Shown here: piece by piece, positions 13,496 to 27,688 of the stretch
Numbering within the stretch: the stretch's first letter is position 1
Layout of the letters: every line of letters starts with the position of its first letter
NCBI GenBank assembly: GCA_023151275.1
Contig: JAKLJI010000003.1
Span: forward strand, 82,357-146,356
DNA length: 64,000 bases
Source of the DNA: Bacteroidia bacterium
Lineage (GTDB): Bacteria > Bacteroidota > Bacteroidia > UKL13-3
Direction of reading: 5' to 3'
Position numbers and translations under genes: made by a program
The notes under the pieces: model-generated
Seen by the model: only the letters and a program-made list of their open reading frames with translations
What the model was told of the DNA's origin: nothing
Databases searched by the model: none

Positions 13496-15598
13496 CTGAT
13501 GAACGAATACCTTCGAACACCCATAGAATACCTGAAAGGAGTAGGCCCAACGCGCGCCGAACTTCTTAAAAAGGATTTGGAGGTATTTACCTTTCACGAC
13601 CTTTTGTTTCATTTCCCCTATCGGCATATCGACCGAAGCCGGATTTATACAGTAAAGGAAATAGATGGCAGTCAGAGTTTTCTTCAGCTAAAGGGAACAA
13701 TTTCTAATTTACGGACCTTGACCAGCGGAAAAAGTCAGCGTTTGACGGCAGAATTTTTTGACGGGACAGGGGTATTGGAACTTGTATGGTTTCAGGGCTT
13801 GAAATGGGTTAGGGAAAGCCTTAAACCCAACAAAACCTATCTTATTTTTGGAAAACCAAGTGAGTTCAACGGTAGCTTTAACATGGTCCATCCCTCCTTA
13901 GAAGATCCAGAGGAGTTGCAAGCCAAGAAGTATGCGCATATTATGCCCTTATACAATTGCAGCGAAAAAATGAAGGCAAGAGGATTGGATAGCCGGCAGC
14001 TCATGAAGATGATGCATAGCTTGCTCAATGATCCCCGATTTGAGCTGGAAGAAAATCTGCCCGAAGATATTCGTTCCCGGTACAAATTTCCATCACGAAA
14101 AGAGGCCTTTATTTCAATTCATTTTCCTGCCGACTTTGGGAGTTTGCAGCAAGCAACCCAACGTTTAAAATTTGAAGAACTTTTCTTCATTCAACTGAGG
14201 TTGTTGCGGTATAAAATGAAACGAACACAAGTGGTAAATGGAATCCGTTTGGAGAAAATTGGTGATGCATTTAATACCTTCTATTCAAGCTACCTGCCCT
14301 TTGAACTTACTCAAGCTCAAAAACGGGTTCTGAAGGAAATTCGGGGCGATGTTAAACGCGGCATTCAAATGAATCGTCTGGTGCAAGGTGATGTTGGTAG
14401 TGGCAAAACAGTAGTTGCTTTGATGAGTATGCTTATGGCAATTGACAACTCGTATCAGGCTTGTATGATGGCACCAACTGAGATTCTTGCCCAACAGCAT
14501 TTTAAAACCATTCGCGGACTATTAAAGGACATGCCCGTTGAAACAGCACTATTAACGGGCAATACCAGCGCAAAAGAACGCAAGAAAATACATGCCGAAT
14601 TGGAAAGTGGTCAACTACAAATTCTTGTGGGTACTCATGCCTTGATTGAGGACAAAGTAAAGTTTGCCAATTTGGGCTTGGCCATTGTTGATGAACAACA
14701 TCGTTTTGGGGTTGAACAACGTGCACGACTGTGGCAAAAAAACAAATATCCGCCTCATGTTCTGGTAATGACGGCAACTCCTATTCCTCGCACTTTGGCA
14801 ATGACCCTATACGGCGACCTTGACACCTCGGCCATTGACGAATTGCCTGCCGGAAGAAAACCCATTCAAACCGTTCATCGATTTGACTCAAGCCGCCTGC
14901 AAATGTTTGGTTTTATTAGGCAACAAATTGAGTTGGGCAGACAAGTTTACATTGTTTATCCGTTGATTGAAGAATCGGAAAAGCTAAGCTATAAAAGTTT
15001 GGTTGAAGGGTATGAAAGTATATGTCGCGAGTTTCCTGCACCCAAGTATGCGGTTAGCATGGTACATGGCAAACTGAAGCCGGCAGACAAGGAGTTTGAG
15101 ATGAAACGCTTTGTAAAAGGTGAAACTCAAATCATGGTTGCCACCACCGTTATTGAAGTTGGAGTGAACGTTCCTAATGCAAGTGTAATGGTAATTGAGA
15201 GTGCCGAAAAATTTGGATTATCTCAACTCCATCAATTGCGCGGAAGGGTTGGACGAGGTGCAGACCAATCCTATTGCATTTTAATGAGCGGAAATGAATT
15301 GAGTGCTGATGCACGATTGCGATTAAAAACCATGGTAGAAACCAATGATGGTTTTAAGATAGCAGAAGCAGATTTGAAATTACGTGGACCGGGAGAACTG
15401 GAAGGTAAAGCGCAAAGCGGAGCCCTCGACCTAAAAATTGCAAGCATTTCGGAAGATGCTGGATTGATAGAATTAGCGCGAAATGAGGCTGGAAAAATTT
15501 TAAACAATGACCCAAATCTTGAATTGGATGTGAATAAATCGCTACAACTTTACTTCAACCTATACCAACAAACCGCAAAATGGGGCAGAATATCCTGA
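13496..15598 (+). CDS. recG: ATP-dependent DNA helicase RecG
   Basis: N-terminal TPIEYLKGVGP wedge region, Walker A GDVGSGKT, DEQHRFGV (DEQH), and helicase C motifs QLHQLRGRVGRG. Confidence 0.9.
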   Translation: MMNEYLRTPIEYLKGVGPTRAELLKKDLEVFTFHDLLFHFPYRHIDRSRIYTVKEIDGSQSFLQLKGTISNLRTLTSGKSQRLTAEFFDGTGVLELVWFQGLKWVRESLKPNKTYLIFGKPSEFNGSFNMVHPSLEDPEELQAKKYAHIMPLYNCSEKMKARGLDSRQLMKMMHSLLNDPRFELEENLPEDIRSRYKFPSRKEAFISIHFPADFGSLQQATQRLKFEELFFIQLRLLRYKMKRTQVVNGIRLEKIGDAFNTFYSSYLPFELTQAQKRVLKEIRGDVKRGIQMNRLVQGDVGSGKTVVALMSMLMAIDNSYQACMMAPTEILAQQHFKTIRGLLKDMPVETALLTGNTSAKERKKIHAELESGQLQILVGTHALIEDKVKFANLGLAIVDEQHRFGVEQRARLWQKNKYPPHVLVMTATPIPRTLAMTLYGDLDTSAIDELPAGRKPIQTVHRFDSSRLQMFGFIRQQIELGRQVYIVYPLIEESEKLSYKSLVEGYESICREFPAPKYAVSMVHGKLKPADKEFEMKRFVKGETQIMVATTVIEVGVNVPNASVMVIESAEKFGLSQLHQLRGRVGRGADQSYCILMSGNELSADARLRLKTMVETNDGFKIAEADLKLRGPGELEGKAQSGALDLKIASISEDAGLIELARNEAGKILNNDPNLELDVNKSLQLYFNLYQQTAKWGRIS

Positions 15599-15664
15599 GT
15601 TAATAGCAATTGGCGGAAAAGCAGGCATTTTTAAGCTTCTTGTTAATTTACAAACCATTATGGT

Positions 15665-16201
15665 TTGTATTTTGCCAGCTGTATGCCAACAGCAAAATAC
15701 ATACTTATTCTTTGCATTCCTGACAGTATTGGTTCGGGTATTGAACGCTGTAGGCAGGAGCTAAAAAAGCTTAGTGAACGAGCCAATCAACTTCCTGCAC
15801 ATCTTGAAATTACCCCTGAATTTTCCTGGAATGAAAAGGAAGAGTACTTATTGGTTCACAAAATCAAATCTTGTGTCCAATCTTGTTTTTCGCACTCCAT
15901 TGAATTAGGCGATCCCTATTTAGACAAATCGAACCAGCTTATTGCAATTAGCTACAAGAACGACCCGCAGCTGGAGCAATACAGAAGTTTATTCAAGGAA
16001 TTGTTTACTCAGGAAAAAATGCCTGAGCCATACCCTGGCTTTATTGTTGGCAAACAAATTCGCGAACAGCATTTTATTAAGGCCATGAACAGGGCAAAAG
16101 AAATGGACTGTAGCCTAAGTTTTTGGGGCGATAAATTAAGCTTATACAAAGAAGAAAATGGAACAGAATGGTCTTGCCGTTATGTGTTTGATTTAGATTA
16201 A
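15665..16201 (+). CDS. Hypothetical protein (no recognisable family)
   Basis: Intact 178-aa ORF in an otherwise tightly packed region, ending in a terminator hairpin; no motif recognised. The real start is possibly MPTAKY at 15686. Confidence 0.35.
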   Translation: MYFASCMPTAKYILILCIPDSIGSGIERCRQELKKLSERANQLPAHLEITPEFSWNEKEEYLLVHKIKSCVQSCFSHSIELGDPYLDKSNQLIAISYKNDPQLEQYRSLFKELFTQEKMPEPYPGFIVGKQIREQHFIKAMNRAKEMDCSLSFWGDKLSLYKEENGTEWSCRYVFDLD

Positions 16202-16231
16202 AAAAGCCGGCCCTTTTCAGAACCGGCTTAC
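16201..16231. terminator. Rho-independent terminator, mainly serving minus-strand acs
   Basis: AAGCCGG-loop-CCGGCTT stem. On the minus strand it reads GCCGG...CCGGC followed by TTTTT, directly after the acs stop. Confidence 0.5.
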
Positions 16232-16250
16232 ATTTATTATTACGCCTAAA

Positions 16251-18176
16251 CTATCTAATTTCTTCTGCACCTTGTTTGATTGCATCCACAACTGTTGGGT
16301 CGATCAGTGTTGAAGTGTCGCCCAGATTTGATGTATCACCTTCTGCAATTTTTCGTAGAATACGTCGCATGATTTTTCCTGAACGGGTTTTGGGCAAAGC
16401 CTTAACAACCTGAATGCGGTCGGGTCTGGCAAATGGACCAATAATTCCGGTTACATGGCTCTTCACCTCTGCACATAATTCTTCATAAGAGTGGTGCTCT
16501 CTATCGCAAATAACAAAAGCCCAAATGCCCTGACCTTTGATATCATGCGGATAACCAACCACTGCGCTTTCAATTACATAACCGTGTTCGTTAATAGCAT
16601 CCTCCACCTCACCTGTTCCAATGCGGTGTCCTGAAACATTAATCACATCATCTACCCTACCGGTTATACGGATATAGCCATCTTCATCACGCTTGCAACC
16701 ATCACCTGTGAAATACTTACCCGGGTAGGTACTGAAGTAATTCAGTTTAAATCGTTCGTGGTCACCATACACTGTGCGGGCCATTCCCGGCCAAGGGAAC
16801 TTGATGCACAAATTACCCTCAACACCATTTCCTTCGATTTCAGTACCTTTTTCATCAACAATTGCCAATTGAACTCCCGGCAATGGAAGTGTAGCAAATG
16901 CCGGCTTCAATTTGGTGATACCTGCAAGGGGTGAAATCATAATTCCTCCGGTTTCTGTTTGCCACCAAGTATCAACTATTGGACATTCTCCCCTACCAGC
17001 GTTTTCGTGGTACCAATGCCAGGCCTCTTCGTTGATTGGTTCTCCAACAGAACCTAATACCTTCAGCGAAGAAAGGTCTTTGCCTTCGAAAGGCTCTGTA
17101 CCAAAAACCTCCAACGAACGAATGGCAGTTGGTGCTGTATAGAAGATGGCAACCTTATGCTTTTCGATTAAACTCCAAAAACGTCCCGGATCGGGATAAC
17201 TTGGTATACCCTCAAACATAAGCGTGGTGGCACCATTCAACAATGGACCATACACGATATAACTATGCCCGGTAACCCAACCAATATCAGCGGTACAACA
17301 AAAAACCTCTTTATCCTGGTATTGGAATACATTCTTAAAAGTATAGGCTGAATAAACCATATAACCCGCGGTGGTATGCAATACGCCTTTTGGCTTTCCG
17401 GTTGAACCCGAGGTGTATAAAATAAACAGAGGGTCTTCGCTTTCCATGGATGCAGGTTGATGAACAGCAGAAGCGCCTTCCATCAAGGTATTCCAATCAA
17501 AATCGCGACCAGGCTGCATATTCATGGCAAAGCCTTTGTGGTTGTAAACAATACAACTGCGAATGCCCGGAGATTTCTCCATGGCTTCATCCGCAATTTG
17601 TTTCAAATCTATTTTCTTTTCGCCGCGAATCATACCATCTGCAGTAATCAGCAAACTGCAATCGGCGTCATTGATTCTATCTGCTAAGGATTGTGAAGAA
17701 AAGCCCGCAAATACCACTGAGTGAATGGCTCCAATACGAGCACAGGCAAGCATGGCAACCGCAGCCTCCGGAATCATGGGCATATAAATACAAACCCTAT
17801 CACCTTTCTTTACTCCCTGTTGTTCCAATACGTTTGAGAATTGGTTAACCAGTTTGGAAAGTTCGCGGTATGTTAAATTTCTATACTTATCCTGGGGATT
17901 ATTGGGTTCCCAGATAATGGCAATCTGATCACCACGGTCTTCCAGGTGACGGTCGATGCAATTTTCCGAAATATTCAAGCGAGCTCCACTGAACCAGCTT
18001 ACTTCAGGGGTATTAAAATCCCAGCTTAGCACCTTGTCCCACGGCTTGTGCCACTTAAAAGAATCTGCTATTCCGGCCCAAAAGGCTTCGGGATTAGAAA
18101 CGCTTTCCTGATAAGCAGCCTGGTACTCATCAAAACTCTTTAATTGAGGTAACATAGTGGTAAGGTCTAAGGTCAT
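16251..18176 (-). CDS. acs: Acetyl-CoA synthetase (AMP-forming)
   Basis: AMP-binding signature YTSGSTGKPKGV, ~640 aa, Acs-like N-terminal SFDEYQAAYQESVSNPEAFW and C-terminal KTRSGKIMRR. The track start at 18203 is a GTG; ATG at 18176 preferred. Confidence 0.9.
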   Translation of the reverse strand: MTLDLTTMLPQLKSFDEYQAAYQESVSNPEAFWAGIADSFKWHKPWDKVLSWDFNTPEVSWFSGARLNISENCIDRHLEDRGDQIAIIWEPNNPQDKYRNLTYRELSKLVNQFSNVLEQQGVKKGDRVCIYMPMIPEAAVAMLACARIGAIHSVVFAGFSSQSLADRINDADCSLLITADGMIRGEKKIDLKQIADEAMEKSPGIRSCIVYNHKGFAMNMQPGRDFDWNTLMEGASAVHQPASMESEDPLFILYTSGSTGKPKGVLHTTAGYMVYSAYTFKNVFQYQDKEVFCCTADIGWVTGHSYIVYGPLLNGATTLMFEGIPSYPDPGRFWSLIEKHKVAIFYTAPTAIRSLEVFGTEPFEGKDLSSLKVLGSVGEPINEEAWHWYHENAGRGECPIVDTWWQTETGGIMISPLAGITKLKPAFATLPLPGVQLAIVDEKGTEIEGNGVEGNLCIKFPWPGMARTVYGDHERFKLNYFSTYPGKYFTGDGCKRDEDGYIRITGRVDDVINVSGHRIGTGEVEDAINEHGYVIESAVVGYPHDIKGQGIWAFVICDREHHSYEELCAEVKSHVTGIIGPFARPDRIQVVKALPKTRSGKIMRRILRKIAEGDTSNLGDTSTLIDPTVVDAIKQGAEEIR

Positions 18177-18325
18177 TGTTGATTTGTCAATCAAAGTAAA
18201 CACCTTCCCTTTTGAAATCCATTTGTTTTTATGCTAAATAGCCATAGCTAAGTAAAAATTGAATTAAGCTCACAAATAATTAACTGAAGCATTACGCTTC
18301 AAGCACTCAAACGAAAAACAAAGCT

Positions 18326-18406: not shown

Positions 18407-18781
18407 TCAGGCTTGCAACATATCGTTTACCTTTTGCATGAGGGCTCGGGTTGAATATGGCTTTGTCATGTAATAATCAGCCCCAAACTCCATCCCTTTC
18501 TGAATATCTGCATCTTTTGATTTGGCCGATAAGAATATCACCTTGCAAGCCTTGTGTTCAACTGAATTCTTGATAAAACTGCAAATTTGATACCCATCAA
18601 TATCCGGCATCATGATATCTAAAACGGCCAAAGCCGGATTGTGCTTTTTAACGATCTCCATGGCCTCCGAACCATTTCTGGCAATAAAAACTTCGTATCC
18701 ACTTTTTCTCATCAAAAATTCCAAAGAGAGAAGGATATTAGGTTCATCATCAGCCACGAGTATCTTTTTTGCTCCATTCAT
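18407..18781 (-). CDS. Single-domain response regulator (CheY-like receiver only)
   Basis: ILVADDEPN, phospho-acceptor LDIMMPDIDG and conserved Lys in KVIFLSAKS. The protein is 124 aa with no output domain. Confidence 0.8.
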   Translation of the reverse strand: MNGAKKILVADDEPNILLSLEFLMRKSGYEVFIARNGSEAMEIVKKHNPALAVLDIMMPDIDGYQICSFIKNSVEHKACKVIFLSAKSKDADIQKGMEFGADYYMTKPYSTRALMQKVNDMLQA

Positions 18782-18798: not shown

Positions 18799-21492
18799 TT
18801 AATCTGTTATGAACAAGGTGATGACAAAGGTAGCACCTTTTCCCGGTTCACTCAAAACCTCAATGGTACCTCCATGCAATTCAACAATCTTTCTGCAAAT
18901 TGCCAGGCCCAAACCACTTCCTTTGGGCTTGCGAATGGTTTGATTTCTGGCTTGAAAAAACTTATCAAATATTAATTCCTGGTACTCCGGCTCTATGCCT
19001 CTTCCGGTGTCTTTCACAGACAAAACAACCTGATCGTCGCGACGCAAGGCACTTACTTGTATCAAACCACCTGTCTCCGTAAACTTAACGGCATTTGAAA
19101 GTAAATTAATGAGCACCTGCATCATTTTATCCTTATCCAAAATCAGGTTGAGTTGCTCGGGGTCCACATCAACCAACAGATTCAGCTTTTTCTCATCGGC
19201 TAAACTTTTGATACTGTTTATTGATTCCTGAATAAGTTCTTTTACATAAACTTCCTCCAGAAGCAGCTTTTGTTTTCCCGAATCGTATTTCTCCAAATCG
19301 AGCACCTGAGATATCAGGCGGGAAAGGCGTTCTGTTTCTTTGTTGATGATTTGAAGGTAGTGTTGTCTATCATCCAATTCAAGCTCAGGATTATCAAACA
19401 AAATCTCCGAAAATGCACGGATTGAAGTAATTGGCGTTCGCAATTCATGGGTAACTGTTGCCAGAAAATCATCCTTCAATTCATCCATTTCCTTCAGCCT
19501 ATGATTGGCAAGTTCTAACTGGCTTTTGGCTCGTTTCAACTCCCGGTTAAGCAACATCAATTGCTGTGATTCTCTGAGAATATCCATCAACTCCGCCAAT
19601 TTTACTTCCTCTTCTTTTACCACCGAAGCCACCATTATCCGCGCGGATGCCGAGCCAATAATTCCGGAAAGCACACGCTCTACATAGGCTACCAATTTGG
19701 GGTCGGCTTTCTCCTGCTCTGAACTTATTTGATTGCGTATTGAAAAATTACGAATGGCGTTCCGACTGCGTTGTTCCCCAAAGAAATTGGCCAAGAGGGA
19801 TTCCATATCAGGGATACTGGCTTGCCCCTTCCAAACCGGAGCGGCATCCATGATTTTTTCATACTTAAAAATATTCACAAAAATCTCGGCCTGATTTTGT
19901 TCTTTATCATCGGCTTTGGTATTGAGAGAAACCAGTACATACAAACCTAAATTGAAAAGCATGCTGAAGAAAAAAGCATGCGTGATTGGGCTGAAACCAG
20001 TAAAACCAAACAGTTGATTTGGCTTGAGCAATTCAATTCCCCATGGACCATATTGAACGAAATCAGATTGAATAATTCCAGATCCCACAAGGAAAGGTAA
20101 AACCAAGGTGTAAAACCAAATGGCGAATCCAGCAATCAAGCCACTTAAAGCACCCTTTTTATTTCCTTTTTTCCAGTACAAGCCACCAATAATGGCAGGT
20201 GCGAGTTGGGCTATGGAAACAAATGAAATCAAGCCCACAGAAACTAGGCTGTAATACTTACTTATGTAGTGATAATAGGCGTAAGCAACTCCCAAAATAA
20301 CCAAAATCCCCAAACGTCTTGAATTGAGCAAGAATCGACTCAAATCAAACAAGGGATTCTTTATTCGATAATCGGAACCTAGAAGCACCGGCATTGCAAT
20401 GTGATTGGAGAACATGGTGCTTAATGCTATGGTATCAACAATTATCATGCTTGTAGCAGCTGCAAAGCCACCAATAAAAACCAATAAGGCAAGTGCCTTT
20501 TGATTCATTTGCATGGGAATATCCAGGATAAAATAATCGCCATTTACACCGTTTCCGGGGAACATCATGCTACCTGAAAGCGCAATGGGCAGAACAAAAA
20601 TGTTTATCAGTAACAAGTACAAAGGAAAGAGCCAAGTGGCGTGTTTAAGGTGGCTTTCATCTGTATTTTCAACTACTGCCAGTTGAAATTGACGGGGCAA
20701 TAAAGTTGCTGCAATTCCTGAAAGCAAGGCAATCCATAACCAATCGCTGTAGCCAAACTGTTGTTGAACTACAAACAAGTTACGCAGTTCAGGAAAAACA
20801 AAGGCCCGGGAAAAGACATCGCCAAAGCCATCAAACAAAATCCAGGTGACATAAACCCCAACCGCAAGAAATGCGAACAATTTGATGATGGATTCAAAAG
20901 CAACCGCCACAACCATTCCGGTATGCTGCTCGTTGCTTTCTACCTTGCGTGTGCTGAAAACAATGGAAAATAATGCCATGCAAAGGGCCACAATTAAACC
21001 GGTATCTCCAATCAAACCGTAGGAACCCGATTTCATTTTAAAATCAGGACTTATGATTAAATCAAAGGAATCGGAAATGGCTTTTAGTTGCAGGCTGATG
21101 TTGGGAATAACACCCAAAAAACAGAGAACTGTAATGATGCTCGCCAAACTTAGGTTTTTTCCATAGCGCGATGAAATGAAGTCGGCGATGGTAGTGATGC
21201 GCTGGGTTTTGCAAATGCGGATAATTTTGCGCAATAAAAATAGCCACAAAGGCGAAATCAAAGTTGGACCAATATAAACGGCGAGAAAGCCCAAACCTTC
21301 CTTACTGGCTTTCCCTACGCTGCCGTAAAATGTCCAAGCCGTGCAGAACACAGCAAGTGAAAGGGCATAAACAACTGGCCCTTGGAAAAAGCTTCGCTTT
21401 TTTTGCTTGCTACCTTCTACCCGATAGGCAATGAAAAACAGCAAAGCCAGATAAATCAACGAAAACAAAACGATTAACCAGGAGCTGAGCAT
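18799..21492 (-). CDS. Sensor histidine kinase with N-terminal sodium:solute symporter (SSS/SLC5) domain (CbrA/CrbS-like, non-hybrid)
   Basis: About 13 TM helices of SSS type over ~520 aa, then a coiled linker, the H-box THELRTPITSIRAFSEIL, and HATPase N/G boxes LLSNAVKF...GSGLGLAICRKIVELHGG. No C-terminal receiver domain. Confidence 0.75.
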   Translation of the reverse strand: MLSSWLIVLFSLIYLALLFFIAYRVEGSKQKKRSFFQGPVVYALSLAVFCTAWTFYGSVGKASKEGLGFLAVYIGPTLISPLWLFLLRKIIRICKTQRITTIADFISSRYGKNLSLASIITVLCFLGVIPNISLQLKAISDSFDLIISPDFKMKSGSYGLIGDTGLIVALCMALFSIVFSTRKVESNEQHTGMVVAVAFESIIKLFAFLAVGVYVTWILFDGFGDVFSRAFVFPELRNLFVVQQQFGYSDWLWIALLSGIAATLLPRQFQLAVVENTDESHLKHATWLFPLYLLLINIFVLPIALSGSMMFPGNGVNGDYFILDIPMQMNQKALALLVFIGGFAAATSMIIVDTIALSTMFSNHIAMPVLLGSDYRIKNPLFDLSRFLLNSRRLGILVILGVAYAYYHYISKYYSLVSVGLISFVSIAQLAPAIIGGLYWKKGNKKGALSGLIAGFAIWFYTLVLPFLVGSGIIQSDFVQYGPWGIELLKPNQLFGFTGFSPITHAFFFSMLFNLGLYVLVSLNTKADDKEQNQAEIFVNIFKYEKIMDAAPVWKGQASIPDMESLLANFFGEQRSRNAIRNFSIRNQISSEQEKADPKLVAYVERVLSGIIGSASARIMVASVVKEEEVKLAELMDILRESQQLMLLNRELKRAKSQLELANHRLKEMDELKDDFLATVTHELRTPITSIRAFSEILFDNPELELDDRQHYLQIINKETERLSRLISQVLDLEKYDSGKQKLLLEEVYVKELIQESINSIKSLADEKKLNLLVDVDPEQLNLILDKDKMMQVLINLLSNAVKFTETGGLIQVSALRRDDQVVLSVKDTGRGIEPEYQELIFDKFFQARNQTIRKPKGSGLGLAICRKIVELHGGTIEVLSEPGKGATFVITLFITD

Positions 21493-21493
21493 G

Positions 21494-21751
21494 CTATTTT
21501 TTATTTACAATTCGGTAGACTAAACCAATAAAAAACACCCATACCGAAAACACATAAATGTAAAGCACAGGTAAGCCTCCCAAGAGTTTGGCTTTATCTG
21601 CAATGCTCAACAAAGGGTAGTTCAGCAAAACGAAAAAAAAGAATGCCAGGAAACTTAATTTGGTTGATTTCATTTTCTGATTCACAGCTCCAAGATACGG
21701 ATTAACCAAAAAAGAATCGAGCTTTTGCTTTGCAAAAGCTCGATTCAACAA
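21494..21751 (-). CDS. Small 2-TM membrane protein, DUF4212-like 'symporter small subunit', translationally coupled to the SSS-kinase
   Basis: 85 aa with two hydrophobic helices; its stop lies 1 nt before the kinase ATG, matching the typical mini-ORF upstream of SSS proteins. Confidence 0.45.
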   Translation of the reverse strand: MLNRAFAKQKLDSFLVNPYLGAVNQKMKSTKLSFLAFFFFVLLNYPLLSIADKAKLLGGLPVLYIYVFSVWVFFIGLVYRIVNKK

Positions 21752-21850: not shown

Positions 21851-22129
21851 CTATTCTATTTCTCTATCGTATTCTCCTTTTAAGGAATAATAACCAAAGA
21901 TGATTAACCCAAAGGCGATTGGAAGGAAAATTCCGATAATAATTCCCCATTGCAATTGGATATTCAGCTTAGCCGCTTCTGCTGTTGATCGTGCCAACTC
22001 ATCTACAGCTTGTTCAATGCGTAGATTGGAGGCTGAGATTTTATCAGCGGCTTGAACAAACATAAATATTGCTGCTGCAGGACCTAATAAAATCCAGATA
22101 ATTCCTAATGCTCTGCGTATAGTATTCAT
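21851..22129 (-). CDS. Small membrane protein (2 TM flanking a helical segment), unknown function
   Basis: 92-aa ORF packed between the MFS gene and the DUF4212-like gene on the same strand. Confidence 0.35.
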   Translation of the reverse strand: MNTIRRALGIIWILLGPAAAIFMFVQAADKISASNLRIEQAVDELARSTAEAAKLNIQLQWGIIIGIFLPIAFGLIIFGYYSLKGEYDREIE

Positions 22130-22149: not shown

Positions 22150-23883
22150 TTAATTGTGGATATACTCGTTCTCATCATCCATTACATCTTCATCTATGTG
22201 ATTAGTGAGGTATAAAGTACCAATAACAAGACAAACGGCTGCAATACCAATTGGATACCAAAGTCCGGCCAATGGCGAACCGTTTGGCATAGCAGGAGAT
22301 TTGGTGTACTCAATAATTAAAGTAGAAAGGAATGGAACCAAACCACCAAAAACACCATTGCCAACATGATAAGGCAATGACATTGAGGTGTATCGAATAC
22401 GGGTTGGGAACAATTCAACCAAAAACGCAGCTATTGGACCATAAACCATTGTCACATAAACGATTTGGATGAACACCAGGAAAATCATGGTCCAAAACGT
22501 GTCTTTTCCAACTTTTTTCTCAACTCCAATTGCAGCCTTTTCTCCCTGATAATTCACCAACAAATTCAAGGTATCCACTTTAGCGTTTTGCAGGGCTTCT
22601 GTGGCCTGACTCTTCATCGTATAATAGGTTGGCAAACTTCCACTATCCGCACCTAAAGTAGTGCAAGCAAATACAACCTGAGCCGATTTATCTGTACTTA
22701 GATTAAGAGGTTCTGCAAGGTACAGGGTATCTGTGGTAGTGTATTTAAAAACTGCTCCGTCTGAATAGCTTGTATCTTTTTTGGAAACAATAAACAACTT
22801 CTGATTGCTTTTACTATCGGGAATAGCAGTAACAGAACGTATACCAGACTCTTCCAAAACAAGCTCATTTGACTTCAATGCGGGATTGGTATAATCAATA
22901 AACTTCTGGTAAATGGAACGATAGCTCAAAATTCCCAATAACATGCCTAGCATCATTATCCATTTGCGACCAACTCTGTCGCTCAATGCACCAAAAAGAA
23001 TAAAGAATGGAGTACCTAAAACAATGGCCCAAAGAATGATTGTCCTCGACTGTTCAAAATCAACCTTACAGGTGTTCTCAATGAAGGACTGCGCATAAAA
23101 CTGACCGGTGTACCAAATTACACCCTGTCCCATTACAGCCCCAAACAAGGCCAGTAAAACCATTTTTAAATTGGCTTTGTGGCTAAAACTTTCTTTCAAT
23201 GGATTTTTAGATGTTTTGCCTTCCTTCTTCAATTTTGCAAACAAGGGCGACTCACTCATTTTCATCCGGATATAAATAGACACGATAACCAACAAAATAG
23301 AAACCCAGAAAGGAACGCGCCAACCCCAATTGTTAAACTGGTCGATACCCAATTGATTTCTTGTAAATAAAATTACTCCAAGCGATAAGAAAAGTCCCAG
23401 GGTTGCAGTAGTTTGAATCCAGGAGGTGAAATAGCCACGTCGTTTTGCTGGAGCATGTTCGGCCACATAGGTTGCGGCCCCACCATATTCACCACCCAAG
23501 GCCAAACCTTGCACCAATCTTAAAAAGAGAACAATAAGCGGAGCAGCAACCCCAATTGTTTTATAGCCGGGTACCAAACCAATTGCAAAGGTTGAGCCTC
23601 CCATCAAAACAAGTGTCAACAAGAAAGTGAATTTCCTTCCCAGCAAATCGCCCAAGCGACCAAAAACGAGTGCTCCAAATGGCCGAACAATAAAGCCAGC
23701 TGCAAATATGGCTAGGGTTGACAACAGTGCTGCAGTTCCTTGCTCTTCCGGAAAGAATTGCTTGGAAATTAGGGTTGCCAGACTTCCAAAAATGTAGAAG
23801 TCGTACCATTCAATCAAGGTTCCTACGGAGGAGGCACCGATTACCTGGTAAATGGACGAGGGTTTGTCTTCGTTACTTTTCAT
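22150..23883 (-). CDS. MFS transporter, metabolite:H+ symporter (MHS; ProP/KgtP-like) family with ~110-aa hydrophilic central insertion
   Basis: MHS hallmark GTLIEWYDFYIFGSLA...FFP plus 12 TM; there is an unusually long soluble loop between TM6 and TM7. Confidence 0.7.
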   Translation of the reverse strand: MKSNEDKPSSIYQVIGASSVGTLIEWYDFYIFGSLATLISKQFFPEEQGTAALLSTLAIFAAGFIVRPFGALVFGRLGDLLGRKFTFLLTLVLMGGSTFAIGLVPGYKTIGVAAPLIVLFLRLVQGLALGGEYGGAATYVAEHAPAKRRGYFTSWIQTTATLGLFLSLGVILFTRNQLGIDQFNNWGWRVPFWVSILLVIVSIYIRMKMSESPLFAKLKKEGKTSKNPLKESFSHKANLKMVLLALFGAVMGQGVIWYTGQFYAQSFIENTCKVDFEQSRTIILWAIVLGTPFFILFGALSDRVGRKWIMMLGMLLGILSYRSIYQKFIDYTNPALKSNELVLEESGIRSVTAIPDSKSNQKLFIVSKKDTSYSDGAVFKYTTTDTLYLAEPLNLSTDKSAQVVFACTTLGADSGSLPTYYTMKSQATEALQNAKVDTLNLLVNYQGEKAAIGVEKKVGKDTFWTMIFLVFIQIVYVTMVYGPIAAFLVELFPTRIRYTSMSLPYHVGNGVFGGLVPFLSTLIIEYTKSPAMPNGSPLAGLWYPIGIAAVCLVIGTLYLTNHIDEDVMDDENEYIHN

Positions 23884-23898: not shown

Positions 23899-25329
23899 TT
23901 ATAGGAAAATTTGAAATTGCAGCATCAACTCTCCTTTACGCTCGGAGCTGCGCATGCGGGTAGCTATTTCATAGGTTGGTCTGGAAGAATACTGGAGGGT
24001 AAATTTGGAATGGTGTCCATCCAGAAAAAAGTTTGCACCAATATCGTAATAGCTTCCTGATTCTTTAAGCGCTTCAAACTTTTTTAAGGCAAGCGATGCT
24101 ATTGGCTGAATGCGCATTTTCTTGCTAATGGTTTTTGGCAATAAAAGTCCGGCCTGGGTGTACCATATTGTGCCGGTACCCATCATGGCTCTAGCATTTC
24201 CACCACCTTCAAAAACGCGAGCTGAACTTGGAAGGTCTGTATTGGGTAATCCTTCATTCATGATTCCAATATTGCGGATATAGTTTGGTCCGAAATCATA
24301 AGCATAGAGCACAGAATAGGCTGTAACTGCCATATTTTTCTCCTTATCACCGAAAGGCAAATCGGCAAACACATCAGCTGCAAATAAATTAATTGCATGC
24401 TTTTTCAGTTTACCTGCAGCATCTTTTGATTGTGTAGCATCAGCCTGAGAATAAAAGCCGGCACCCAGATTTAAAATTCTTTTTGTACCTATATAGGTGC
24501 CTGTTCTGAAGGGTAGCAATGCCGATTCCTTCTCCAGGAAATTGTATTCAAAATAGCCTCCAAATCCCGCTTTGGAATTACCATTGTTTTCTACGGCAAC
24601 TTCTCTGGTTTCATTAAAGGCGGCAACAAAACGGGCAGTATCGGCGGCAAGCGTAGTTGCAAATGGTTTATTCACATGCATTTGATAGCGTAGTTTTCCG
24701 GCATACCCTTTTACAAACAGCCCATATTGGCGACCAAATTGGTCGGTATTTTCAATCAAAGGCCAATTAAAAATTGGAGCATCAATCATTAAAAAATTGA
24801 GCGTGCTGGCAGATGTCATGCGTGATAAGCCATGCATATAATGCAAGCCCGCACCAAGAGAAAGTGAGTAGTTATTTTTAGCTTTAGTTTCCGGGTTGAT
24901 TTCCGGAATAATGGCATATTCATTCAAGGCATCGTGAAAAAACAGTTGAGGCTTTTTGCCTTGGCCATATCCTCCGGTTCCTGCAGTACCAGAACCACCA
25001 CCATTTAAAAAGGTCTGGTTGTTAATTCCGACATGAGTAAGAATCATGTACCGAGGAGAAATTTGAGCAATAGCTAAAAAGCGAAGACGGCGACCACCAA
25101 TATCAAAGGTTTTGTCTTCGGAAACACCATTCACTAAAGTTCCCGGATTGTTTTCGATATACCTGGCCCAAATTTGGTTCCAAAAAATAAATCGAATGTA
25201 TTTGCTCTTATCTTCATTGATTCCAATTTTCAAACCGGAACCATAATCAGCTGAGCCCTGAGAGCGGCCGGGGGAGCTGATAAACAGCAAGATTGCTGAT
25301 AATACTAAAAAGGGGTAATGTTTTCTCAT
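23899..25329 (-). CDS. Putative outer-membrane beta-barrel porin
   Basis: Signal peptide, alternating amphipathic strands, Gly-rich loops and a C-terminal aromatic/hydrophobic end ...LMLQFQIFL. Confidence 0.5.
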   Translation of the reverse strand: MRKHYPFLVLSAILLFISSPGRSQGSADYGSGLKIGINEDKSKYIRFIFWNQIWARYIENNPGTLVNGVSEDKTFDIGGRRLRFLAIAQISPRYMILTHVGINNQTFLNGGGSGTAGTGGYGQGKKPQLFFHDALNEYAIIPEINPETKAKNNYSLSLGAGLHYMHGLSRMTSASTLNFLMIDAPIFNWPLIENTDQFGRQYGLFVKGYAGKLRYQMHVNKPFATTLAADTARFVAAFNETREVAVENNGNSKAGFGGYFEYNFLEKESALLPFRTGTYIGTKRILNLGAGFYSQADATQSKDAAGKLKKHAINLFAADVFADLPFGDKEKNMAVTAYSVLYAYDFGPNYIRNIGIMNEGLPNTDLPSSARVFEGGGNARAMMGTGTIWYTQAGLLLPKTISKKMRIQPIASLALKKFEALKESGSYYDIGANFFLDGHHSKFTLQYSSRPTYEIATRMRSSERKGELMLQFQIFL

Positions 25330-25334
25330 ACCGA

Positions 25335-25352
25335 TGGGTTATTCGTTAACCC
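25335..25352. promoter_or_regulatory. Inverted repeat TGGGTTA-N4-TAACCCA immediately upstream of porin start codon
   Basis: Read from the sequence; sits 6 nt upstream of the ATG at 25329, overlapping the RBS region. Confidence 0.25.
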
Positions 25353-25434
25353 AAAGTTTGAGAAAGAAAATTAAGATAAATAAAATCGTGCAGTTGAATG
25401 TTAAATTGATGTATTCATTAACGAAAGTCAAGGA

Positions 25435-25857
25435 CTAATCCCTGAATCGTTCCCATTTTATCATCATAAACTTATCGCCCAATTCTGTAATAACAGAACC
25501 TGCACCCTTTAGATTATCCTTGTTCTTCATATATTCAACAAGCTCTGCATGATTCAGGATTTTGTAGGTTGGATGGTACTGCGAATTTTCAGGCCGCTTC
25601 AACCCATATTGTTTCACCCAGTTCATTACCGAAACATGGCTTGTTCCGAGGAGACGTTCAATTTCCCGATAACTCAATCCTTCAATATAAAGCTGAAGAG
25701 CTTTGGTGACATAATAATTATCGATTCGCTTACCAAGTTTATTTACAGTGAAAAAGTAAGCACAGTTCTTGCATTTGTAACGTTGCCGCTCTTTCAGAAT
25801 TCCACTTTTGATGACGCTGAAACTTTGACATTTTGGACATTTCACATCGGTTGACAT
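25435..25857 (-). CDS. IS1 InsA / IS1595-type Zn-ribbon plus HTH protein, standalone (no adjacent DDE transposase)
   Basis: CPKCQS...RYKCKNC is a transposase-type zinc ribbon, followed by the InsA-like HTH LSYREIERLLGTSHVSVMNWVK and ~50 extra C-terminal residues. No InsB or DDE ORF follows. Confidence 0.5.
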   Translation of the reverse strand: MSTDVKCPKCQSFSVIKSGILKERQRYKCKNCAYFFTVNKLGKRIDNYYVTKALQLYIEGLSYREIERLLGTSHVSVMNWVKQYGLKRPENSQYHPTYKILNHAELVEYMKNKDNLKGAGSVITELGDKFMMIKWERFRD

Positions 25858-25958
25858 AGGAGTTTATATAAACGATATACCAAGTAAGCATAAATATAGC
25901 TAATTAGCAAGAAAAAAAATGCACAGCTTGAGAGACTCAACAAAAGAGAATCAGCTTA

Positions 25959-27131
25959 TTAACGCGAGTCCTTTGTTGAATGCGGATATTGGAGATAGAA
26001 CAAAATGCTAAGGCTCCAACTCAACAAGCCATAGGCTATTCTATCGAGTAAGCGATTGAAAAAGCTCGATGTTTTCAAAAATTCTTCCAGTCTTATCTCT
26101 ATTGCGTCATTTTCTAAAACAGATTGAATGAGTGCATCTGCTTGCCGAACAACTTTTTCGTTTTTACATAACACATTGCATTCAACCGAACCAAAATCAC
26201 TCAAATAATTCAGGTTATACGAACCAACACAAAGCTCAGTATGATCAACAAGCACAAGCTTACCATGTAAAACAGTGGGCTTGTACTCAAAAAGACGAAC
26301 CCCTGCTTTCAGTAAATCGGGATAAAAATGGCGGATTGCTCTTTTCATCAAACCAATATCAGACCTCGCTCCCAGAAGGAGTTTTATTTCCACTCCCCTA
26401 TCCGCAGCTTGTTTCAATTTGCGTTTCAAACCAGCACCCGGAATAAAATAACTGGCTACAATAGTTAGCTCTTTATTTGCCCGAACAATGCTTCTTCTGT
26501 AGTAAAAAGAGATGGCAAGTTTTGAACGAAACCAATTGTTCTCAAGCACTCTAAAATCAGGACTCCCCTGAGCAATAGGATGTGCTGATATCAAGTTTTT
26601 TGGAGGCTTTTTATTCCAAGGATAATACCTTCTTAGGACACGAACCGTATCAAGTACTGCTTGACCATGGTAAATCAAGGCAAAATCAAGCCAAGGCATT
26701 TGTTTGGCATTTCCTTGATAATGGTCAGACCAATTAATTCCGCTGCACGAGGCCCAATTTCTATCTACAACAATCAATTTATGGTGCAAACGCAGACCCA
26801 TTTTAAATTCAACAAGCTGACTTAATGGAGCATACCACGAAAGTTTAATCCCCGCATTTTCAAGATTTCTTATCCAGAATTCAGAAAGGTCTTTTGATCC
26901 GTAGGCATCCAAAAGCAGAAAAACCTGAACACCCCTTTTAGCTGCATTAATTAAGGCATTCATCATTTGAATACCGGTTGCATCTGATTCTAAAATATAC
27001 AACTGCACCAATACTTCCACCTGAGCATTCTCAATTGCAGCCCTCAGGTGTTGAAAGTATTCAGGTCCACCGGTAAAAAATTCAACCGCATTGGCATGCC
27101 TGAACGGAAAGCTGTTGCGGAATCGTTCCAT
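25959..27131 (-). CDS. Phospholipase D-family protein / cardiolipin synthase-like (two HKD motifs)
   Basis: HxK(x)4D motifs HHKLIVVD and HGKLVLVD. Start trimmed to MERFRNSF (27131) so it abuts rather than overlaps the yciH stop. Confidence 0.75.
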   Translation of the reverse strand: MERFRNSFPFRHANAVEFFTGGPEYFQHLRAAIENAQVEVLVQLYILESDATGIQMMNALINAAKRGVQVFLLLDAYGSKDLSEFWIRNLENAGIKLSWYAPLSQLVEFKMGLRLHHKLIVVDRNWASCSGINWSDHYQGNAKQMPWLDFALIYHGQAVLDTVRVLRRYYPWNKKPPKNLISAHPIAQGSPDFRVLENNWFRSKLAISFYYRRSIVRANKELTIVASYFIPGAGLKRKLKQAADRGVEIKLLLGARSDIGLMKRAIRHFYPDLLKAGVRLFEYKPTVLHGKLVLVDHTELCVGSYNLNYLSDFGSVECNVLCKNEKVVRQADALIQSVLENDAIEIRLEEFLKTSSFFNRLLDRIAYGLLSWSLSILFYLQYPHSTKDSR

Positions 27132-27132
27132 A

Positions 27133-27474
27133 TTATCCGCCGGCTTTTTTAACCGAATAGGATTCCTTTTGGAGGTATGCGAGCAATTTATCTCTGAAGT
27201 CGCCTTGAATAAGGATTTCGCCATCCTTGGCACTTCCTCCAACACCACAATGTTTTTTGCATAAGGAGCCAAGCTCTTGCAATGCAGAATCGGGGCCCAC
27301 AAAACCAGTAATTCTTGAAACAAGCTTGCCTCCTCCTTTTCTATCCAGAAAGATTTTCAGCCGTTGTTGGTTGGGAGGCAATAACTCCTGCTCTTCTGCA
27401 TTATTCTCCTGGTATTCAAAAAAGGTATCCGTAGAATAAACTACTCCTTCCCGCTTTTTATTCTTGTTGCTCAT
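27133..27474 (-). CDS. yciH: Translation initiation factor SUI1/YciH family
   Basis: [12 protein letters not shown]...[26 protein letters not shown] matches the SUI1 fold signature. Confidence 0.7.
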
Positions 27475-27688
27475 GATCAAAACAAAAGTACACATCAAAA
27501 CGGAATCCTGCTGTTGAAATATTTAGGAATAAATGCCCTAAACAGCCCAAATAGCTAGCCGGAAAAGGATATTGAGGCGAGCAGAACTTCTAAATTGGGA
27601 AGCTTTCTATTTGTAGCAGTTTAATTTTCTTTACCCCTAAGAAACCTGACAGAAGTCAATACACCAACCGACATTTGATGGTTTTACG

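Follow-up and report, generated by a model that had tools for sequence, protein, structure and literature searches.

We analysed a 64,000-nt stretch of the genome of a Bacteroidia bacterium (GTDB lineage Bacteria; Bacteroidota; Bacteroidia; UKL13-3; GenBank assembly GCA_023151275.1, contig JAKLJI010000003.1, positions 82,357 to 146,356), referred to here as the window, and within it a gene for a 140-amino-acid (aa) protein that heads a run of genes for a porin-like protein, a major facilitator superfamily (MFS) symporter, a sensor kinase, a receiver-only response regulator and acetate–CoA ligase (acs). Judged from sequence, the protein is a domesticated copy of OrfA, the InsA-type product of a Bacteroidota element of the insertion sequence (IS) family IS1. 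Its gene is flanked on both sides by sites resembling the terminal inverted repeats (IRs) of IS1, and a further site of this kind lies upstream of acs. It is probable, in our assessment, that the exapted OrfA and the exapted IRs make up a local regulon in which the protein would serve as a dedicated transcription factor for uptake and activation of acetate (short-chain carboxylate).

Derivation of the protein from IS1 OrfA

25435-25857, minus strand: gene for the domesticated IS1 OrfA/InsA-type protein, with a zinc ribbon, a helix-turn-helix (HTH) and a small beta-alpha-beta-beta C-terminal domain (open reading frame, NCBIfam and Pfam matches, alignment, AF2 model).

The open reading frame (ORF) runs from ATG to stop over 140 aa, as an earlier sequence-only reading of the window had it. 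That reading also assigned a zinc ribbon and HTH to the product, and profile searches agree. The N-terminus exceeds the curated NCBIfam cut-offs of both NF050000, the IS1/IS1595 Zn domain (37.6 bits versus 28), and NF048018 (38.5 bits versus 27), while matches to Pfam Zn_ribbon_InsA and several HTH families lie slightly below threshold. The IS1 transposase model NF033558 aligns over its positions 1-117 of 199 (E 2.8e-21) with a score of 76 bits, below the cut-off of 100 bits. An N-terminal four-Cys zinc ribbon followed by an HTH is the membership feature of IS1 OrfA/InsA-type proteins; the protein has both, and the four ribbon cysteines (CxxC...CxxC; C7, C10, C29 and C32) are invariant in the domesticated family and in IS OrfAs alike. 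An AF2 model (pLDDT 79.7) places the ribbon at residues 15-39, a three-helix HTH at 47-84 and the beta-alpha-beta-beta domain at 94-137. In the family alignment the most conserved part is the C-terminal 50 residues (YHPTYKIL...GAGxIITELGDKFMLIKWERF).

The nearest relatives outside the family are products of 130-150 aa that end in ...VE(I/V)DE(L/M)HxYIGxKK plus a short tail, together with a full transposase of 219 aa. A genuine IS1 on a Tenacibaculum finnmarkense plasmid is 744 bp long and encodes a 150-aa frame-0 OrfA with an A-run frameshift site, followed by the DDE frame. The window protein is 43% identical to this OrfA (E 2e-28), and alignment shows it to be colinear with IS OrfAs from end to end, tail included. 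The sequence-only reading had credited the protein with about 50 extra C-terminal residues. These are instead native OrfA sequence, since the IS1 OrfA products of this clade are themselves about 145-150 aa long and align over their full length. Full-length colinearity also indicates that the ancestor was the IS's own InsA-type product and not a broken transposase.

What the gene does not encode is the DDE transposase of a functional IS1, which is made either as InsAB' by -1 frameshifting or from a fused ORF. The absence of an InsB or DDE ORF, noted earlier, holds: the frame ends at 140 aa and the next gene lies 105 nt away. The column of the first catalytic Asp corresponds to family position 104, which is variable, and the adjacent E105 is invariant. 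We considered whether the conserved ITELGD could be the catalytic VEIDEL with an Asp-to-Gly change and rejected this, because the alignment with IS OrfAs puts the catalytic Asp at position 104 and pairs the tail bearing ITELGD with the OrfA frame-0 tail, not with the catalytic motif. By these sequence comparisons, the frameshift site, DDE domain and catalytic Asp have been lost, and the zinc ribbon, HTH and OrfA tail kept. Genuine IS relatives are elements of about 745 bp whose GGCAT-tipped IRs are intact and whose DDE transposase is frameshifted; they are found in many copies in single samples (>10 occurrences in one metagenome). A tblastn search for paralogues within the window, a check that the sequence-only reading had proposed more broadly, returned a single copy in 64 kb.

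Four other Zn-ribbon-HTH relatives of 138-148 aa, P0125 (L173 6180-6626), P0143 (L174 409-825), P0173 and P0227, also have no catalytic DE motif. All four sit in unrelated contexts, which for the more distant P0125 (53% identity) and P0143 are without acs, and they may be further independent domestications of IS1 OrfA.

Conservation of the gene and its linkage to acs

A search of 5.8 billion proteins yielded 2238 matches, whose properties we describe from the best 120. Nearly all of these are 137-142 aa long and 68-96% identical to the window protein. They are spread over Flavobacteriales, Cytophagales and Chitinophagales, with Flavobacterium, Pontibacter, Microscillaceae and Flexibacteraceae represented, and are mostly named 'transposase' (including 'IS1 family transposase') or left unnamed in databases. 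A scan with one genome per species gave 589 confirmed stretches, and the best 80 of these, which come from 80 different assemblies, form the set of related loci analysed here.

IS1 elements occur in multiple copies at variable positions. The gene studied here is present once in the window, and its right-hand neighbours are shared across the 80 loci. Among these loci, which were sampled by presence of the regulator gene, a kinase with an SLC5-type transporter domain, a receiver and one or two acs genes are linked to it on the same strand wherever there is enough flank. In one case (L079) kinase and receiver lie upstream of the regulator gene rather than downstream. The block of porin, MFS and DUF6814 genes between regulator and kinase is variable, or absent (L017, L021, L040 and L064), and neighbours on the upstream side of the regulator gene differ between lineages. 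The sequence-only reading had proposed the whole downstream locus as a possible target; it is the kinase, receiver and acs genes that emerge as the conserved partners, while the porin and MFS genes vary or are missing in some loci.

The protein is under strong constraint. Identity between the window and Flavobacterium is about 70%, versus 33-60% for neighbouring genes. Nonsynonymous divergence (dN) is 0.05-0.25 at saturated synonymous sites, and the ratio of nonsynonymous to synonymous divergence (dN/dS) is 0.033 in the sole pair for which dS is defined. The earlier suggestion that a transposase-derived protein has been domesticated as a regulator, and is no IS remnant, is supported by its conserved length, its occurrence at 80 loci in 80 assemblies, its linkage to kinase, receiver and acs, and this dN/dS. 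The paralogue check designed to separate the two gave, for the best 80 of 589 loci, one conserved syntenic copy, as expected of domestication; a single copy of this kind, in place of many, argues that the gene is not an IS fragment. DNA binding and transcriptional regulation would be the retained activities of the 140-aa protein.

The opposite view sees the gene as what is left of a decaying IS1, namely a truncated transposase gene and its residual IRs, which serves no host function and adjoins the acs cluster by chance. Its IS1-derived sequence, the IR-like relics at its flanks and the database name 'IS1 family transposase' would all fit such an origin. An intact ORF of constant length that is better conserved between orders than its neighbours, with a dN/dS of about 0.03 and a fixed position in 80 species, would not, nor would a C-terminal tail that is the most conserved part of the protein. 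We regard a remnant as very improbable.

One related locus departs from the common pattern. In L001 (Flavobacterium kingsejongi CP020919) the SLC5 kinase is split into two ORFs of 389 and 493 aa (13946-16632), and an IS with DDE_Tnp_1 lies between two acs paralogues (19030-19854). This locus may be decaying with the regulator gene still intact.

Sites derived from IS1 inverted repeats

The sequence-only reading had found no inverted repeats near the gene. Searching the flanks with the help of the 80 related loci and of genuine IS1 ends overturned that observation: degenerate IS1-IR-like sites, too diverged in the window for detection by eye, stand in inverted orientation on both flanks. In what follows IRL and IRR denote the left and right repeats.

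25875-25918, minus strand: two tandem IRL-like sites, 19 nt apart, 5' of the regulator gene (IS-IR matrix and upstream-site matrix).
25399-25414, plus strand: IRR-like site, 21-36 nt past the regulator stop codon (IS-IR matrix score 12.9, second best in the window).
25350-25360, minus strand: weak Bacteroidota-type -7-like box of the downstream operon, CAAACTTTGGG (only TTTG conserved).
18223-18247, minus strand: IR-like site 5' of acs, CTATGGCTATTTAGCATAAAAACAA on the gene strand (oriented as the porin-promoter site).

The ends of genuine elements provided the reference. The IRs of the Tenacibaculum IS1 read GGCATTGCTAATTTAATATAG and, reverse-complemented, GGCATTGCTAATTCAATAAAG, and related IS1 elements in Methylobacter and Methanomethylovorans carry the IR GGCATTGTTAATT... 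Copies of IS1 from Hymenobacter and Emticicia showed no clear IRs. From 80 metagenomic IS1 copies we obtained 67 distinct IR instances with the consensus GG(C/T)AT-TG(C/T)TAA-N5-TATA(G/T). The core of this consensus (TGYWAA-N5-TATA) and its spacing are identical in the sites that flank the domesticated gene.

Nearly all of the 80 loci carry, 5' of the regulator start codon, a tandem TGCTAA-N5-TATA-N4-TGCAAA-N5-TATA with a period of 19 nt. Across 1.44 Mb, both strands counted, a loose regular expression for this unit gave 217 matches, of which just 5 lie neither beside the regulator gene nor 5' of acs nor within the regulator gene. On the other side, the post-stop spacer of about 100 nt opens in related loci with a conserved CTATA-N4-5-TT(T/A)ACA-N4-TATATA, and a -7-like box containing TTTG follows some 47 nt beyond this element, a geometry that the window shares. 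The position of the box relative to the IR-like site is constant in all loci (Flavobacterium version, TAGAATTTGG), and the box at 25350-25360 may be the corresponding promoter in the window. Equivalent sites lie either past the regulator stop codon or before the porin gene. In Pontibacter, where about 800 bp are inserted between regulator and porin genes, the IR-like site remains at the porin promoter.

Two independent matrices were built, one trained on upstream sites only and the other on genuine IS1 ends only. The first recovered 57 sites 5' of acs in 41 loci, all oriented like the post-stop site. The second, 16 nt long with the GGCAT tip excluded, was scanned over 82 domesticated loci with the following result.

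Within 120 nt 5' of the regulator gene: 97 matches in 76 loci, all IRL.
Upstream of acs: 55 matches in 38 loci, IRR.
Post-stop or at the porin promoter: 18 matches in 17 loci, all IRR.
Elsewhere: 49 matches in 39 loci, mixed orientation.

A block-shuffled control gave 95 matches in total over all sequence. Genuine elements have GG(C/T)ATTG(C/T)TAA... at both ends. Complete terminal IRs of this type, starting GGnnnTG, are missing from the domesticated loci, which have the inner core on both sides without a conserved GGCAT tip. When the tip was included in the matrix almost nothing passed, just 8 loci 5' of the regulator gene, and it follows that the cleavage ends are gone. Cores kept while tips were lost, and extra copies at acs promoters, are likewise hard to reconcile with a decaying remnant.

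These ends bear equally on whether OrfA and its IRs could still form a mobile non-autonomous element, mobilised in trans by full IS1 copies. Inverted IR-like sequences on both sides of the gene are what such an element would have; against it stand the unconserved GGCAT termini, with the tip-inclusive matrix passed at only the 8 loci just mentioned, the finding of a single copy in each assembly that supplied a best locus and in the window, and right-hand neighbours common to different orders. We find continued mobility scarcely credible.

In the window, the IRL-like site TGCTAATTAGCTATAT (25894-25909, gene strand) scores 15.6 with the IS-IR matrix and 23.1 with the upstream-site matrix, and its tandem partner TGCTTACTTGGTATAT (25875-25890, gene strand) 9.2 and 19.5. 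They probably constitute an autoregulatory operator over the promoter or leader of the regulator gene. The post-stop site, TGTTAAATTGATGTAT when read towards the regulator gene on the opposite strand and ATACATCAATTTAACA on the gene strand, is a probable activator site for the promoter of the porin operon. The site upstream of acs (match at 18232-18247) scores 12.7 with the IS-IR matrix, third best in the window, and with a score of 16.2 is the sole match to the upstream-site matrix beyond the regulator's own promoter. The top three IS-IR matrix matches in the entire 64 kb are those at 25894-25909, 25399-25414 and 18232-18247.

A different explanation of the conserved elements is that they are promoters, terminators or sites of another, unlinked regulator, and that the protein does some other job, such as conferring immunity to IS1 by binding its IRs. 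The antisense strand of many sites holds TAnnTTTG-like -7 boxes, a T-run follows the downstream site in Flavobacterium, and InsA is known to inhibit IS1 transposition. Nonetheless, a pattern of 16-23 nt (TGYWAA, a fixed N5, TATA and a 19-nt tandem spacing) far exceeds a -7 box, and consistent orientation and identity with IS1 IR cores also weaken this explanation. We rejected the downstream site as an intrinsic terminator on the grounds that its stem, just 5 bp of AT, is too weak and that the motif recurs at acs promoters and 5' of the regulator gene itself. Immunity to IS1 would leave the strict linkage to acs unexplained. Overall, explanations of this group are improbable.

Two further sequence features were noted at these sites. 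Codons for the conserved peptide ALQLYIE read TTTACAGTTATATATAG in some species, so that the regulator gene itself contains a sequence scoring highly against the operator motif (L062 113-128, L079 10141-10156); this is probably due to chance, although it recurs. A perfect small palindrome, GGGTTA-ACGAA-TAACCC (25336-25352, minus strand), directly precedes the porin start codon and shares sequence with the TTTGG box; it may form a hairpin in the leader or serve as a second operator.

Proposed regulatory mechanism

InsA of IS1 binds the terminal IRs and represses its own promoter, which lies in IRL. Because of this homology, the domesticated OrfA would be expected to bind the IR-derived sites, with the inner cores (TGYWAA-N5-TATA), now devoid of the GGCAT tips needed for cleavage, acting as operators. 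Tandem IRL-like sites on its own promoter or leader would allow autoregulation, as by InsA at the IRL of IS1. The IRR-like site about 47 nt 5' of the weak -7 box has an activator-type position relative to the porin-MFS-DUF6814-kinase-receiver operon, and the IRR-oriented copy 5' of acs may similarly support activation. That the protein binds these sites, that it represses or activates as described and that acetate is the signal are all predictions of the model.

Several points weigh against the proposal of an OrfA/IR regulon. Homology and co-location are the only links between the protein and the sites. Given their high AT content and partial similarity to the Bacteroidota -7 element TAnnTTTG, the sites could owe some of their conservation to promoter function. 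In the window the downstream site is diverged, with a right arm of ACTG in place of TATA and an IS-IR matrix score of just 12.7-12.9. Foldseek found no structural relative of the C-terminal domain that hints at mechanism, and the estimate of copy number per genome comes from the 80 best loci and the window.

The two-component system encoded in the cluster suggests where a signal might enter. Kinases of the related loci are non-hybrid and, in 64 of 65, 882-935 aa long; the receiver ORFs of 71 related loci span 119-141 aa. A response regulator with its own DNA-binding output domain, a CrbS/CrbR-like feature, is not what the locus encodes, the regulator being a receiver only. With a non-hybrid kinase and a receiver-only regulator at all 71 loci, the two-component system itself lacks a DNA-binding output. 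Within the cluster, the IS1-derived 140-aa protein is the one conserved protein that binds DNA by type, and for this reason we propose it as the output partner. That the phosphorylated receiver acts through it, probably by way of the nearly invariant C-terminal domain, is a tentative suggestion to which we give somewhat less than an even chance.

An evolutionary scenario that would unite these elements is doubtful enough to be offered only as a possibility. A whole IS1 element would have been exapted once, early in Bacteroidota, contributing its OrfA repressor and both terminal IRs, and OrfA and IRs would have become the output of the SLC5-STAC system. Docking of the phosphorylated receiver on the invariant OrfA-derived C-terminal domain would switch the protein from an autorepressor at the IRL-derived operator to an activator of the transporter operon and acs at their IRR-derived operators, and solo IR copies would have carried the regulon to new promoters.

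For the signalling step, a metabolite-sensing regulator that works independently of the two-component system is a serious alternative, unlikely as we judge it to be. The protein would then be a local transcription factor on the IR-like sites, for example a repressor relieved by acetyl-CoA or acetate at the C-terminal domain, and the receiver would have another role, for example in controlling a transporter's activity or as part of a phosphorelay. Targets outside transcription are common among single-domain receivers, which lends this version some weight. The combination of HTH and small alpha/beta domain is also weakly reminiscent of ligand-sensing Lrp/AsnC-type regulators, yet the best such structural match (Foldseek E about 0.02, TM 0.25) is not significant. 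Moreover, the locus offers kinase and receiver no other conserved partner that binds DNA, and their co-location with the regulator gene is universal, even where gene order is altered, as in L079.

Relation to known systems and significance

The protein shares with IS1 InsA (OrfA) the order of ribbon, HTH and tail and the 43% identity to the Flavobacteriaceae homologue noted above, and its gene is likewise flanked by IR cores in IRL/IRR orientation, one of them over its own promoter region. It differs in having no frameshift site or DDE frame and in occurring, across orders, as a single syntenic copy under strong purifying selection. Also unlike InsA, the IR tips are lost, extra IR-like sites occur at host acs promoters, and the C-terminal tail has been remodelled and is nearly invariant.

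The regulators of the best-known SLC5-STAC systems, CrbR and CbrB, each carry their own DNA-binding output domain. With CrbS/CrbR and CbrA/CbrB the window locus has in common the SLC5-STAC 'transceptor' kinase, a small cbrX-like ORF before it and the linkage to acs; here, by contrast, a non-hybrid kinase is paired with a bare receiver at every one of the 71 loci. Two reports describe CrbS/CrbR (MxtR/ErdR) as an acetate switch in Vibrio and Pseudomonas in which CrbR activates acs transcription (PMC5436829, PMC5715377), and CrbS as a hybrid kinase (PMC5715377). In the window acs is adjacent and shares a cis-element with the regulator locus, from which control of acs is predicted.

Transposase-derived factors that act at transposon ends are familiar from eukaryotes, as with SETMAR and Hsmar1 terminal IRs, and FHY3/FAR1. 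The logic here would be the same, a mobile-element DNA-binding module and its cognate ends co-opted for host regulation. Exapted transposon-derived proteins also have a bacterial precedent in TnpB/Cas12f regulators (PMC12259090). Compared with all of these, the present family is a different one, in which a regulatory OrfA, and not a catalytic transposase or RNA-guided nuclease, has been exapted, and it appears from sequence to be wired to a metabolic two-component locus. Within Bacteroidota, the PorX-SigP pair of Porphyromonas gingivalis exemplifies a regulator that has no DNA-binding domain and works via a separate transcription factor. PorX has an enzymatic output domain and an ECF sigma factor as its partner, whereas the present regulator is a bare receiver with a Zn-ribbon-HTH protein as candidate partner.

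Full-text literature searches turned up no account of the family, nor of an acs regulator derived from IS1 OrfA. The principle that a transposon DNA-binding module can be exapted along with its ends is already known. As far as can be told, the novelty lies in the family itself, in both IR relics having been kept, in solo sites having spread to acs and in the connection with a two-component system without an output domain. Co-option of a transposase DNA-binding module together with end sequences is a textbook route to eukaryotic regulatory networks, of which few bacterial cases are documented, and the footprint at this locus is unusually legible: the protein, both IR relics in correct orientation and solo IR-like sites at a metabolic gene are conserved across orders. 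If true, our proposal explains how a Bacteroidota acetate-switch two-component system reaches DNA without an output domain on its regulator, and it would correct a widespread annotation, with thousands of such genes called 'IS1 family transposase' or 'transposase'.

Neighbouring genes in the window

As the sequence-only reading stated, the regulator gene lies directly 5' of the porin/MFS/SSS-kinase/acs run and on the same strand, which is the minus strand.

23899-25329, minus strand: outer-membrane porin-like protein, 476 aa (weak NCBIfam porin_ExtI match, E 2.1e-8).
22150-23883, minus strand: MFS metabolite/H+ symporter, 577 aa (Pfam Sugar_tr and MFS_1; TIGR00883 E 1.1e-107, below cut-off).
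21851-22129, minus strand: DUF6814 small membrane protein (Pfam PF20664, E 4.5e-27).
21494-21673, minus strand: small hydrophobic ORF of about 59 aa, positional analogue of CbrX (ORF; conserved position in related loci).
18799-21492, minus strand: SLC5-STAC-type sensor histidine kinase, 897 aa, no receiver domain (PDB 10ED, HisKA, HATPase_c).
18407-18781, minus strand: receiver-only response regulator, 124 aa, no output domain (Pfam Response_reg, residues 7-119).
16251-18203, minus strand: acetate–CoA ligase, acs (TIGR02188, 954.9 bits versus cut-off 724.95).

The label 'SSS-kinase' given earlier proved apt. Residues 7-469 of the kinase match the Pseudomonas CbrXA SLC5-STAC structure (PDB 10ED, E 1.3e-66), so the window kinase has the N-terminal SLC5-type transporter domain characteristic of acetate-switch kinases; Pfam gave no SSF match for this domain, which was recovered by the PDB sequence search. 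The hydrophobic ORF of about 59 aa stops 1 nt short of the kinase start codon and has no sequence family match. In Pseudomonas, cbrX and cbrA form a translationally coupled pair (PMC13488458), and the arrangement in the window is similar in position.

The place of the porin gene is usually occupied in related loci by a variable gene of 400-470 aa. The MFS symporter is longer in the window (577 aa) than in Flavobacterium and Chitinophagales (about 513-518 aa), and its two-stretch Pfam match implies an insertion of roughly 150 residues (~330-480) between the halves. The true acs start is probably the ATG at 18176. Many Flavobacterium loci (in the range L013-L086) have two acs-like paralogues, about 40% and about 60% identical to the window acs, and both often have an IR-like site upstream. 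Propionate or another acyl group may be the substrate of the second ligase.

On the other side of the regulator gene, a PLD-like ORF with two PLDc_2 domains (25959-27323, minus strand) overlaps a SUI1-family gene (27133-27498, minus strand) by about 190 nt, and the real start of the PLD-like ORF probably lies further downstream. The same PLD-SUI1 pair is also found 5' of the regulator gene in the closest relative, L007.

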